Origin: a virus
UHGV virus genome: UHGV-1353644
Length of the DNA stretch: 18,929 bases
Strand: one strand, 5' to 3'
Both the position numbers and the translations under genes were made by a program. Shown in pieces: positions 4,339 through 7,527 of this stretch; position 1 is the stretch's first letter, and each line of letters starts with the position of its first letter. Below the pieces are notes generated by a model. It did no database searches and was not told the DNA's origin. It was given only the letters and a program-made list of their open reading frames with translations.

Positions 4339-4488
4339 TTATTGCATGACTGTGATAACTGTCATGATAACACGTTGAATTCCGAACGCAAGAAGACCTC
4401 CTGCTACGGCAGGAACAACACCTAAACCCGTCAGTAAAATGCCACCAGATACTAATGCAGCGCTTGTAATACCAATGAATGGACTCAT
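4339..4488 (-). CDS. Small hydrophobic membrane protein (49 aa), motA.1 position
   Basis: My own translation: MSPFIGITSAALVSGGILLTGLGVVPAVAGGLLAFGIQRVIMTVITVMQ. Its ATG overlaps the TGA of gp52 (ATGA); terminator follows. Below the ORF-track length cutoff. Confidence 0.55.
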   Translation of the reverse strand: MSPFIGITSAALVSGGILLTGLGVVPAVAGGLLAFGIQRVIMTVITVMQ

Positions 4489-5813
4489 TTGATTTCCTCT
4501 AAATCTTTGGTGTATTCGGTAACTACATCAGTAGTTTTCCAATATTCGTTCTCTTCTTTTTTAGCTTTAGCTTCTTCAGCAAGTTTCTTCGCTTCATCGG
4601 AAGTCATATGAAAAATATTCATTCCGACTAGTTTATCAGCATAAGAAGAATACATATCAATTTTAGAAAGTTCTTCGGTCAGTTCTTTACGAGTTTTACC
4701 CTGTACAACAATTTCACCTGAAATTACTTTCTTAATGAAATGTGCCTTGGCAAAGGCTAAACGAAATGCTGACTCAGTTTCTTTAATTTTGTTATCAATT
4801 CGTTTTTGGACATAAGTTTTACGAACTTCAACAAAGTCTTTAATTAAATCGACTACGTTATCGTAAACTTGAAGCTTTCCTTTCTCATTAATAACAGTAA
4901 TATTCTGAGAACGACGTTCAATCAATCCGAAGTCTTTCATAATTTTTGCGTGACGTTCTTCTTCATTATCGCTCAAAGAATATTCTTTACGGAATTTAAC
5001 TTTGAAGCCAAAGCCGTGCTCACCACAAGCATCATCCCATGTAATGAAGCCTTTATCTTCAAGCGGGTCTAAAATTTTACTCACATAAGTTTCACGATCA
5101 TACTTATACGGAATCTCAGTGATATGCATTTGAGTTCGTGAAGTAAACTTATATGTTCCGCGAATTTCATATTGCCCATCAATTTCAACGACTTCACCAC
5201 GAAATTCTGGGAATTCTACCTTCGGTTTAGTTACTTTCTTTCCTTGAAGAGCTTGCAATACAGCTTTCTTGACAGAAGAAACACTATGAGGAAGAATGTA
5301 AGTTGCATAACCAGTTGCAATACCGGAAACACCATTAAGAAGAACGGTAGGAATAATAGGCAAATAGAAAGCAGGCGGAATGTGTTCTTTATCTTGATGT
5401 ACCGGAGCATATTCAGTATCTTTATATACACTATAGAAATTTTTACTTACACGAGCAAAAATATAACGACTTGCCGCTGCTTTTTGAACGGTACGAGAAC
5501 CAAAGTTTCCTTGACCATCTAACAGAGGAAAGTTATTATTCCATGTGTTAGCCATCAAAGCACCCGCATCTTGTGCAGAGTTTTCGCCATGATGATATCC
5601 AAGGTCAGCTACACCACCTGCAATAGAAGCGAGTTTATGAAACTTATCTTTATTTCCTCGTGCCAAATCAAGAGCTCGAGCAATAACAAATCGTTGAACT
5701 GGCTTAAATCCATCAATCATATTTGGGATAGCACGATTTTCAACCGTGTACATAGCATAAGCCAATGCTTCATTATCAATGATACTTTTTAAATCGCGAT
5801 TATTCAGTTGCAT
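4485..5813 (-). CDS. 52: DNA topoisomerase II medium subunit gp52 (GyrA-like, 442 aa)
   Basis: Translation has the GyrA/ParC-type catalytic region (AASRYIFARVSKNFY, with the RYxxxR active-site Tyr context) and an N-terminus like recalled T4 gp52. Confidence 0.95.
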   Translation of the reverse strand: MQLNNRDLKSIIDNEALAYAMYTVENRAIPNMIDGFKPVQRFVIARALDLARGNKDKFHKLASIAGGVADLGYHHGENSAQDAGALMANTWNNNFPLLDGQGNFGSRTVQKAAASRYIFARVSKNFYSVYKDTEYAPVHQDKEHIPPAFYLPIIPTVLLNGVSGIATGYATYILPHSVSSVKKAVLQALQGKKVTKPKVEFPEFRGEVVEIDGQYEIRGTYKFTSRTQMHITEIPYKYDRETYVSKILDPLEDKGFITWDDACGEHGFGFKVKFRKEYSLSDNEEERHAKIMKDFGLIERRSQNITVINEKGKLQVYDNVVDLIKDFVEVRKTYVQKRIDNKIKETESAFRLAFAKAHFIKKVISGEIVVQGKTRKELTEELSKIDMYSSYADKLVGMNIFHMTSDEAKKLAEEAKAKKEENEYWKTTDVVTEYTKDLEEIK

Positions 5814-5817
5814 AAAT

Positions 5818-5958
5818 TTACCATACTAGTGAATGTAGTGCCATAATAACATCAGAAATGAAAAGCACGACTTGAATTAATCCGAACATTATTCCATAAT
5901 ATAACGCTATCAATAAAATAGCAAGGGCTAATGAATAGCCCAAGATTTTCTTAATCAT
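5818..5958 (-). CDS. Small membrane protein (46 aa), 52.1 position
   Basis: My own translation: MIKKILGYSLALAILLIALYYGIMFGLIQVVLFISDVIMALHSLVW. ATG sits 5 nt downstream of the stop of the preceding ORF. Confidence 0.5.
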   Translation of the reverse strand: MIKKILGYSLALAILLIALYYGIMFGLIQVVLFISDVIMALHSLVW

Positions 5959-6109
5959 TAGTAGATAACAACACAAATGTTAAATATGCACACATACCCT
6001 GAGCTAAAGCTTGTGAAAACACGCTACTGGCATCGGTACAGATAGTTAAAACGCATACTACTATCCAACAAATAAATGAAATAACTCCTAATAATTTTGC
6101 GATATTCAT
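5951..6109 (-). CDS. Small membrane protein (52 aa), paralogue of the adjacent 51-aa ORF; one of the two is probably the ac-type gene
   Basis: ATG at 6109 preceded by SD GAGGAG (the track extends to an upstream TTG). Protein MNIAKLLGVISFICWIVVCVLTICTDASSVFSQALAQGMCAYLTFVLLSTND shares a CW...SVF.QA.AQG pattern with the neighbour. Confidence 0.55.
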   Translation of the reverse strand: MNIAKLLGVISFICWIVVCVLTICTDASSVFSQALAQGMCAYLTFVLLSTND

Positions 6110-6119
6110 AATATTCTCC

Positions 6120-6275
6120 TCAACTGTTTTTAAAACCAATGCACGCGAATAATGATAAAACTGCTAATACACCCTGGGCTGATGCTTGTAAAAATACTGA
6201 AGTTTCTCCAGTTATTACTGTTCCAGCGAATAAAAAGCACCAACAGAAAAAAGTTATATCATAAATAAATTTCAT
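6120..6275 (-). CDS. Small membrane protein (51 aa), ac-like position
   Basis: My own translation: MKFIYDITFFCWCFLFAGTVITGETSVFLQASAQGVLAVLSLFACIGFKNS. SD GAGGAAAAT directly after the stp stop. Confidence 0.55.
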   Translation of the reverse strand: MKFIYDITFFCWCFLFAGTVITGETSVFLQASAQGVLAVLSLFACIGFKNS

Positions 6276-6282
6276 ATTTTCC

Positions 6283-6363
6283 TCACAGACGTCCGAAGAC
6301 GCCTTTGGTTTTAAGATTTTTACGATAGAACTGCATCACGTGTTCGTTGTGGAAATTACTCAT
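6283..6363 (-). CDS. stp: Stp peptide (26 aa), the T4 peptide that activates the host PrrC anticodon nuclease
   Basis: My own translation [26 protein letters not shown] matches recalled T4 Stp at nearly every position. Its ATG overlaps the TAA of ndd (TAATG). Absent from the ORF track because of length. Confidence 0.8.
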
Positions 6364-6818
6364 TAATATGCCTGCAAAACAAATTTAAAGTTATCAGCCA
6401 ACATACGATTCATTTCTTCAAGTGTTTGATACTCAGAATGATGATTACGAGTAAACGCCAAAGCTAACTGACCTTTTCCAAATCCTGTCGTCAGAGGTTT
6501 CATCTTAGAAGCAGGAAGATAAAATACTGCGTATGGAACATTGTTATTTGCAATAGTACGCGCAAGCTGAGACCGACGCTGACGAATATGACTTAGAACT
6601 GCACTAAATCCTTGCTTAGAACGCTGATTACCTACATAAAATCGTGCAGATACACACGGACTATCAAATGGACCACCAAATTTGCTCACTAAAAAGTAAA
6701 ATCCAGGGTTAGACAAAATGTCTTTATGCGGAGTTCCAAAAACCCATTCACCGCCCTTGATTGTACCAATAACAGTAGCGCCTGCATTATTCAAATCAGT
6801 AACAGTCATATATTTCAT
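6363..6818 (-). CDS. ndd: Nucleoid disruption protein Ndd (151 aa)
   Basis: Translation [25 protein letters not shown]...[25 protein letters not shown]... matches recalled T4 Ndd; same length and position relative to stp. Confidence 0.9.
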
Positions 6819-6877
6819 GTTAATTTCCTCTAATTATTTTCTACTCCAAGGCCGCATGAATACACACGGCCATTAAA

Positions 6878-7093
6878 TTAATCGTCGCAGTCGACGCTCA
6901 ATTCCCAAAACTCTTCTACAGTATAAGTTTCAGTATCATTTTCAATACAGAAACGTTCATTACTGTTATTTGCTAAAGTAGCATTAACTGTCGGTTTCTC
7001 GCTAGTGCTCTTAAGAGGTGAAATACGAATTAACTGATCACCATTATCTAAACAGAAAATTTCACCAACTTTTACATCTTTAAAGATTTTCAT
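6878..7093 (-). CDS. Hypothetical protein (71 aa)
   Basis: ORF track; SD GAGGTG upstream of the ATG at 7093. Confidence 0.6.
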   Translation of the reverse strand: MKIFKDVKVGEIFCLDNGDQLIRISPLKSTSEKPTVNATLANNSNERFCIENDTETYTVEEFWELSVDCDD

Positions 7094-7101
7094 AATTCAC
7101 C

Positions 7102-7212
7102 TCAAGGAGTATAAAATCCAAATGCAGTTGTTGACCATCCCATCCAATACGGGAAATTTGCGCCAATGTAAAACATAAGAATATAAAACCAACCGCTCAG
7201 CAAATTCATCAT
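7102..7212 (-). CDS. Tiny aromatic/hydrophobic ORF (36 aa)
   Basis: My own translation: MMNLLSGWFYILMFYIGANFPYWMGWSTTAFGFYTP. ATG overlaps the stop of the upstream ORF (ATGA). Confidence 0.4.
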   Translation of the reverse strand: MMNLLSGWFYILMFYIGANFPYWMGWSTTAFGFYTP

Positions 7213-7406
7213 TTTACACCATTCCAAATTGTTTCAATCACGGATTTTAAACCATTCTGATGAATATCCATTCCGACTACAGCCATCAAATAGATTCCAA
7301 CTACAACTGAACCTAATGCAAAAATCAGCATGAAAATGAATAAAGCCGGAAAAATATTATCGAAAAACCATTCCATAAATGTAAAAGCACTGCGTTTACG
7401 TTTCAT
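7209..7406 (-). CDS. Small membrane protein (65 aa)
   Basis: Internal ATG at 7406 preceded by SD TGAGGAAAAT (the track extends to 7427). Basic N-terminus MKRKRSAF followed by a hydrophobic stretch. Confidence 0.55.
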   Translation of the reverse strand: MKRKRSAFTFMEWFFDNIFPALFIFMLIFALGSVVVGIYLMAVVGMDIHQNGLKSVIETIWNGVK

Positions 7407-7413
7407 ATTTTCC

Positions 7414-7527
7414 TCACATAAATCCAAAGTAAACGTTTAATACATCAATCATTAAAACGATTGGGAATATACTCAAAACAACTAAAATTATAATTATATT
7501 CCATATAGCTTTAACAATCTTTTTCAT
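7414..7527 (-). CDS. Small membrane protein (37 aa)
   Basis: ATG at 7527 preceded by SD GGAGGA and lying just downstream of an early promoter; protein MKKIVKAIWNIIIILVVLSIFPIVLMIDVLNVYFGFM. The track's upstream extension would cover the promoter. Confidence 0.45.
   Translation of the reverse strand: MKKIVKAIWNIIIILVVLSIFPIVLMIDVLNVYFGFM

Follow-up and report, generated by a model that had tools for sequence, protein, structure and literature searches.

The 18,929-nucleotide stretch of the virus genome UHGV-1353644 analysed here (the window, given as one strand, 5′ to 3′) carries two small genes of the Ac family in tandem between the genes for Stp and gp52.1. In the T4 annotation (NC_000866) only one ac gene occupies this place, between stp and 52.1, as the initial annotation of the window had stated, and T4 has no counterpart of the stp-proximal copy. 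The question is whether the second gene is a duplication particular to this phage, which is how the initial annotation regarded it, or whether the pair belongs to an arrangement shared with other phages. Its gene identities and its single ac in T4 were borne out by our analysis, but a notable tandem duplication of this phage's own was not. We hold, with a probability of about 0.85, that the locus represents, in a two-ac configuration, the usual ndd–stp–ac–52.1–52 block of early genes found in T-even phages, here in a Tequatrovirus.

The entire 18.9-kb window showed about 95% identity with Tequatrovirus genomes across 96–98% of its length, and no genome was closer. When 801 nt around the stp–ac region were compared, 515 phage records matched, and the top full-length identity was 95.5%.

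Every gene in the region 4485–6818 is located on the minus strand, in the order ndd, stp, acA, acB, 52.1 and gene 52; the names acA and acB are labels used here for the 51-aa and the 52-aa Ac-family genes, respectively. The upstream flank is ndd (6363..6818), encoding a nucleoid disruption protein with 143 of 151 residues identical to T4 Ndd, and the downstream flank is gene 52 (4485..5813), a 442-aa ORF annotated in matching records as the DNA topoisomerase II medium subunit. The four small ORFs between these flanks had been given by the initial annotation at the right positions, with the right lengths, and all lie on the minus strand.

The start of stp (6283..6363, 26 aa) overlaps the ndd stop by 1 nt. 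A 7-nt spacer, GGAAAAT (6276..6282), forms together with the stp stop codon a Shine-Dalgarno-like GAGGA and leads to acA (6120..6275), which encodes a 51-aa A-type membrane protein of the Ac family and has an ATG start with GAGGAAAAT just before it. Between acA and acB lies a 10-nt spacer, GGAGAATATT (6110..6119), which with the TGA stop makes up a GAGGAG ribosome-binding site. The following gene, acB (5951..6109), encodes the 52-aa ortholog of T4 Ac and also has an ATG start, with GAGGAGAATATT just before it. The last small gene, 52.1 (5818..5958), encodes a 46-aa predicted membrane protein, and its ATG overlaps the acB stop by 8 nt, the same overlap as that of 52.1 and ac in T4. The ORF listing extended both acB and 52.1 to an upstream TTG (at 6139 for acB). 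The ATG starts are probably to be preferred, since T4 is annotated with the same starts and a GAGGA(G) ribosome-binding site precedes each of them. The 8-nt overlap suggests translational coupling of acB and 52.1.

The 26-aa ORF, named as Stp in the initial annotation, indeed matched the Pfam model PF08133 “anticodon nuclease activator” (E = 1.1e-19, 69.9 bits with a cut-off of 25) and phrog_6763 (E = 3.5e-20). T4 Stp is likewise 26 aa long and overlaps the ndd stop, and 24 of the 26 residues are identical; the two changes are N15K and Q26L. For the function and critical residues of Stp we used a review of the work of Kaufmann and Snyder (PMC3014915). According to it, the N-proximal 18 residues hold both activities of the peptide, the inhibition of EcoprrI and the activation of PrrC, and are almost invariant across T4 relatives. 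Loss-of-function suppressors map to residues 4–14, and removal of the eight C-terminal codons has only a moderate effect (PMC3014915).

In the window, residues 1–14 and 16–18 of Stp are those of T4, including the whole 4–14 suppressor cluster, and residue 15 is K instead of N; the change Q26L falls in the dispensable C-terminus. Position 15 is H in Gaprivervirus-type Stp, which indicates that this position tolerates change. K15 itself occurred in none of 613 Stp-bearing records, where the best matches reached 96% over residues 1–25. We conclude from these comparisons that the window Stp is probably functional, and its full activity is assumed by homology despite N15K lying inside the conserved 18 residues. 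By homology with T4, it would be a cytoplasmic peptide that binds and inhibits the host type IC restriction enzymes EcoprrI and EcoR124I, and in prr+ hosts this inhibition would, as a side effect, unmask the tRNA-Lys anticodon nuclease PrrC.

AcA and AcB are paralogous, as proposed from the first inspection of the sequence. BLASTP with compositional adjustment aligned them with 17 identities in 40 positions (E = 2e-8), and the two copies are about 40% identical. Their local BLOSUM62 score was 78, compared with 24.5 ± 4.9 in shuffled sequences, and 78 was reached in 0 of 5,000 shuffles; because of both results, the likeness is taken to be well above chance or a common membrane composition. Both proteins matched phrog_2501 (E = 7.8e-20 for AcA and 8.5e-25 for AcB), and no model of the Pfam copy searched scored above its cut-off for either of them.

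The pattern CW...(T/S)SVF.QA.AQG, which the initial annotation had given for the two proteins, was found in their alignment, where the loop and the second-helix motif can be written as T-x-x-[TC]-[GTI]-[ED]-[TA]-S-[SV]-V-F-x-Q-A-x-A-Q-G. When AcA, AcB and seven database homologs were aligned, the invariant columns included C-W of helix 1 and, where helix 2 begins, S-V-F-x-Q-x-x-A-Q-G. The last Gly of the motif corresponds to Gly38 of T4 Ac and is invariant in AcA and AcB. The GRAVY values are 1.17 for AcA and 1.36 for AcB, with charges confined to the termini and the turn, and both genes sit in the usual slot of the family, between stp (or ndd) and 52.1.

AcB differs little from T4 Ac, the 51-aa product annotated as “acridine resistance protein”, with 49 of its 52 residues identical, the same 8-nt overlap with 52.1, the same motif and the same Gly38, and it is considered the ortholog. 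Unlike T4 Ac, it contains a common one-codon +Thr insertion near the C-terminus. The 52-aa Ac with this additional Thr is common, and phage PP01, which carries it, is reported to be acriflavine-sensitive still (bioRxiv 10.1101/2025.06.30.662393). AcB was found 96% identical in hundreds of records.

The 46-aa membrane ORF of the initial annotation is a homolog of gp52.1, with 43 of 46 residues identical to the T4 protein. It matched Pfam DUF7396 (PF24129; E = 4.8e-22, 78.3 bits with a cut-off of 27) and phrog_3595 (E = 8e-25). Its position and its overlap with ac are the same as in T4, and nothing notable is different. A third Ac paralog in 52.1 was ruled out, as the alignment scores were at or below the shuffle mean. 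The product would thus be a small membrane protein unrelated to the Ac pair and translationally coupled to AcB synthesis.

AcA is the more variable of the two copies. Its best database allele is that of T4_ev151 (86% identical), and it differs from the alleles of tandem phages at 7–11 amino acids, chiefly in helix 1 and the C-terminus, while the central motif GT[VIL][IV]TGETSVFLQ..AQG is invariant. A word-indexed homolog search with AcA returned seven close A-type proteins and no others. The AlphaFold2 model of AcA contains two helices (residues 2–22 and 26–49; mean pLDDT 75), and this predicted hairpin is the fold of the published ESMFold model for T4 Ac. AcA and T4 Ac thus share the PHROG, the two-helix hairpin and the glycine, but they are only about 40% identical, and the loop reads TGETS in AcA and C(T/I)DASS in T4 Ac.

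The A type is not restricted to phages with two copies. RB51, RB32 and RB68 (Tequatrovirus) as well as RB69 (Mosigvirus) each have a single ac gene, and in all of them it is A-type; that of RB51 is 78% identical to the window AcA, and that of RB69 shares with it the core CWSFLF...TGETTVF..QG. None of these phages has a second copy, and their A-type gene overlaps or abuts 52.1, with the end KND* in RB51 and RB32, whereas acA in the window is followed by acB and ends in KNS*.

Such variability could mean that acA is a decaying or redundant relic in tandem phages and that only acB, the ortholog of T4 ac, matters. AcA is indeed less conserved than AcB (best match 86% versus 96%), and the pN/pS ratios, pooled over five related tandem phages whose pairs are not independent, were 0.36 for acA and 0.09 for acB, with 0.07 for stp and 0.31 for 52.1. 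In addition, acA is deleted in phages of the T6 type described below, and the T4 type is consistent with a second loss. We nevertheless regard a relic as quite unlikely. The start, stop and ribosome-binding site of acA are intact in every tandem phage examined, its pN/pS is well below 1, its central motif is invariant, and RB51, RB32, UFV-AREG1 and G157lw have no ac homolog other than the A type, the single ac of RB69 being of the same type. Because of the intact ORF and signals, the pN/pS below 1, the invariant motif and the occurrence as sole ac in several phages, the evidence argues for AcA being a functional protein, probably under purifying selection looser than that on AcB. The faster evolution of AcA could be due to a relaxation of constraint and need not point to a distinct function.

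Nucleotide alignment of ten phages, together with the ORF architectures, revealed four states of the ac locus. In the first, the tandem stp–acA–acB–52.1, we found the window, Aplg8, T4_ev151, KNP5 and Sfk20. The second is the B-only state of the T4 type (T4, RB7 and SYGD1), in which acA is gone exactly and the 7-nt stp-proximal spacer is retained; T2 is also B only. The third is the B-only state of the T6 type (T6, fFiEco06 and UGKSEcP1), where a remnant of acA is fused in frame to stp. What is left of acA are its five 3′-terminal codons (GFKNS) and the stop, with the 10-nt acA–acB spacer after them, and Stp becomes 28 aa. The fourth is the A-only state of RB51, RB32, G157lw and UFV-AREG1, in which the gene ends in KND* and has the overlap with 52.1 that acB has in the other states. 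RB69 (Mosigvirus) lacks stp and has one A-like ac.

An identical copy of GGAAAAT lies ahead of the only ac in T4, RB7, RB51 and RB32, and the acA–acB spacer is conserved in tandem phages. The other tandem Tequatroviruses, which include KNP5 (NC_055713), Aplg8, Sfk20, T4_ev151, pSs-1, ECML-134 and more, have the same stp–acA–acB–52.1–52 order and the same spacers as the window, with about 95% nucleotide identity over the 801 nt; K15 and L26 of the window Stp are absent from those named. The closest overall relatives of the window differ in state, SYGD1 being B only, G157lw A only, and KNP5 and Sfk20 tandem, and for this reason the locus is considered to assort independently of the genome backbone.

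The tandem junction, searched with a 151-nt acA–acB query, was covered to at least 80% in 51 of 465 matching records, a count which, like the others of this census, refers to records including GenBank/RefSeq duplicates and not to independent lineages, and so gives a rough frequency only. Most of the other matches to this query begin at the acA stop codon, and a smaller number also take in the 15 nt of the T6-type scar. The acA–52.1 junction of RB51 was covered to at least 80% in 93 records, which comprise the tandem ones (as two joined pieces) and the A-only ones; subtracting the tandem records leaves roughly 40 that are A only. In about one in ten Tequatrovirus records the A type adjoins the T4-type gene.

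Many records already carry the annotation “acridine resistance (x2)”, and both copies are annotated in KNP5, Aplg8 and T4_ev151. The RefSeq order in KNP5 is PrrC activator, “acridine resistance protein”, “Ac acridine resistance protein”, hypothetical protein and topoisomerase II, and the GenBank note on the ac of RB32 states that it is “more similar to RB69”. A literature search found no paper discussing the two-ac arrangement. The arrangement is known at annotation level, and the window is a new allele of known genes in a polymorphic accessory locus. Its significance is modest, as all its genes belong to known T-even families and stand in a known annotated order.

A recent tandem duplication specific to this phage lineage, the reading of the initial annotation, would explain why acA and acB lie side by side on one strand, are much alike in length and are plainly homologous, and why T4 has one gene. 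It is extremely improbable, since the copies are only about 40% identical, the layout occurs in 51 records, and A and B are each found alone in other phages. Moreover, the A type is nearer to the ac of Mosigvirus and Gaprivervirus than to AcB: the Mosigvirus ac scored 118 in alignment with AcA and 76 with AcB, and the Gaprivervirus ac 176 and 89, respectively. Because of the low identity of the copies, a duplication, if there was any, must be old.

Ac members at IMG/VR loci with a more distant ndd also have a TGE or TKE loop. On the simplest reading of these sequence relationships, the A type would be older and the B type a Tequatrovirus-specific derivative.

The T6-type remnant is the scar of a deletion: these phages descend from a tandem genome and have lost acA. 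The T4 type, with its other end-points, is consistent with a second loss.

The reverse order of events, in which the tandem is not ancestral, was also weighed. Here an A-only and a B-only phage would have undergone unequal (illegitimate) recombination in a mixed infection, and the single-copy states would be older. Whether A or B, the gene of a single-copy phage stands at exactly the same site, preceded by an identical spacer and sharing 8 nt with 52.1. In addition, the tandem acA ends in KNS* and not KND*, and is followed by ...CAGTTGAGGAGAATATTATG, which resembles the stp 3′ end and spacer ...CAGTGAGGAAAATATG; this likeness is expected if the acA 3′ end had been joined to a copy of the stp–acB junction. 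However, the likeness is short (about 20 nt) and includes the ribosome-binding site, which is constrained anyway, and the T6-type remnant shows that B-only genomes have, in some cases at least, a tandem ancestor. We consider this origin possible but doubtful. Stacking of two alleles and loss from a tandem ancestor are not mutually exclusive, and either may have come first.

Under the preferred reading of a standard Tequatrovirus block, the two-ac form would be one allele of a polymorphism with four states (A+B, B, B with scar, and A), maintained by recombination and short-homology deletions. The T6-type Stp, which takes its C-terminus from the acA remnant, independently fits the published data that only the N-terminal 18 residues matter.

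Concerning function, expression of T4 Ac sensitises E. coli to acriflavine, deletion of ac makes T4 resistant, and the substitution G38R inactivates Ac and likewise gives acriflavine-resistant T4 (bioRxiv 10.1101/2025.06.30.662393). A block of AcrAB-TolC by T4 Ac is a hypothesis of the same preprint, drawn from phenotypes and a predicted fold (bioRxiv 10.1101/2025.06.30.662393; cited in PMC13250531). By analogy with T4 Ac, AcA and AcB would be helical hairpins of about 50 aa that enter the inner membrane of the host at an early stage of infection, and they would increase the amount of acridines and other efflux substrates inside the cell, as proposed through a block of AcrAB-TolC efflux. The analogy can be extended to AcB with confidence. 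To AcA it is extended provisionally, because the fold, the motif and the critical glycine are shared.

The homologs surveyed in that preprint were only BLASTN matches 93–100% identical, that is, the B type only (bioRxiv 10.1101/2025.06.30.662393). The survey missed the A-type clade, to which the one ac gene of RB51, of RB32 and of the Mosigvirus and Gaprivervirus phages sampled belongs. Phages that naturally carry A, B or both constitute a ready panel for studying the action of Ac and the differences between A and B.

We also considered whether AcA and AcB are non-redundant, as diverged membrane effectors acting on different host targets, for example RND efflux pumps or host alleles, so that the A, B and A+B states would form a host-range or counter-defence switch under balancing selection. 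This is speculative, and we judge it improbable. If it were true, tandem phages would cover both targets, and helix 1 of AcA, which evolves fast, would determine the specificity.

Other features of the region were examined as well. The promoter scan gave 15 sigma-70-like sites compared with 14.7 in shuffles, with no excess. Plus-strand ORFs of the region (22–41 aa) had no homology support and overlap conserved minus-strand genes, and they were rejected. No Rfam match was found at E ≤ 1 in 5000–7500. The 25 nt around the TGETSV codons, which contain a terminator-like hairpin (6196–6212), are identical among the A-type genes of Tequatrovirus and Gaprivervirus; as synonymous sites vary in RB69 and more distant members, this stretch gives no evidence for a structured RNA.

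A profile search of all PDB chain sequences gave no relatives of the Ac family, such as pump-associated small proteins, at E ≤ 10. An exhaustive HMM search of 1.84 billion representatives retrieved only six Ac clusters, of about 50 aa; three long repetitive proteins from the same search were rejected as spurious. The Ac family appears, from these searches, to be confined to T4-like phages. P0009, a rare protein from metagenomes, has an A-like loop and a second helix that is B-like.

Across T4-like genera, the short stretch that separates ndd from gene 52 is a hotspot where small genes are variously present or absent, as seen in the IMG/VR loci around ndd (L007-L042) and in RB69 (L006). The stp gene is missing from RB69 and from many of the other loci, ac is missing from several loci that retain stp and 52.1, and 52.1 was detected in the majority of the loci.

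In the T6-type phages, where acB is the only intact ac gene, T6 (L043:832-918) and fFiEco06 (L044:832-918) encode a 28-aa Stp. Residues 1-18 of this peptide are canonical at both loci, and the tail (NFGILG+FKNS) terminates in the final codons of the deleted acA, after which comes the acA-acB spacer. The tail is a deletion scar and a natural C-terminal swap of Stp. The combination of canonical residues 1-18 with a swapped tail agrees with the published finding that the N-terminal 18 residues of Stp alone matter (PMC3014915). The scarred stp of UGKSEcP1, a third phage of this type, has lost its stop codon, with AATCGAGG in place of AGTTGAGG; it extends to a 59-aa ORF (L045:832-1011) that enters acB in a different frame. 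Several unusual substitutions (MNITKIIGIISM...) were also found in the AcB protein of this phage.

Truncated copies of 52.1 adjoin the Ac gene in three loci, where the full 52.1 is also present: a 37-aa ORF in EAWsc9 (L052), located between stp (548-628) and ac (901-1053), and the 24-aa fragment MGYSVALSSLLVTLYYGVIPITNM in two further loci (L013:2189-2263 and L016:2357-2431). These copies are more signs of local duplication and deletion at the ndd-52 locus. Among the Ac-family proteins, a rare metagenomic member of 50 aa from a Logan assembly (P0009, MKIIGVLAFCLWVFACIMTITTGESRVFLQALSQGTCAYLTFMILIHDND) has a loop of the A type (TGES.VFLQA) but a second helix of the B type (QGTCAYLTF); it is an intermediate in the evolution of the family or else a recombinant between A and B.

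Codon 15 of stp in the window (AAA, 6319-6321) encodes Lys, where T4 has Asn; Lys15 was found in none of the 613 phage records with a Stp match. An unannotated 25-aa Stp-like ORF was found at L055:1501-1578 in the small Escherichia phage K1ind3 (43 kb; Kagunavirus, subfamily Guernseyvirinae), which does not belong to the T4 family, so the range of Stp is wider than the T4-like phages. The ORF has its own ribosome-binding site and is located downstream of the lysis genes; its peptide shares 88% identity with Stp of the window, and the two genes differ at many synonymous sites. A second match was found in Veterinaerplatzvirus T145P1 (H324). Such spread would suit a mobile anti-type-IC-restriction peptide.

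The ndd.1-ndd intergenic spacer contains, directly upstream of ndd, an inverted repeat GGCCG...CGGCC (window 6850-6871), which lacks a T-run and was not called as a terminator. The ribosome-binding site of acB is GAGGAG (window 6110-6122) and includes GGAG, the motif at which the T4 endoribonuclease RegB cleaves the Shine-Dalgarno sequences of early genes, whereas the site upstream of the window acA and of the single ac of T4 is GAGGAA, without GGAG.
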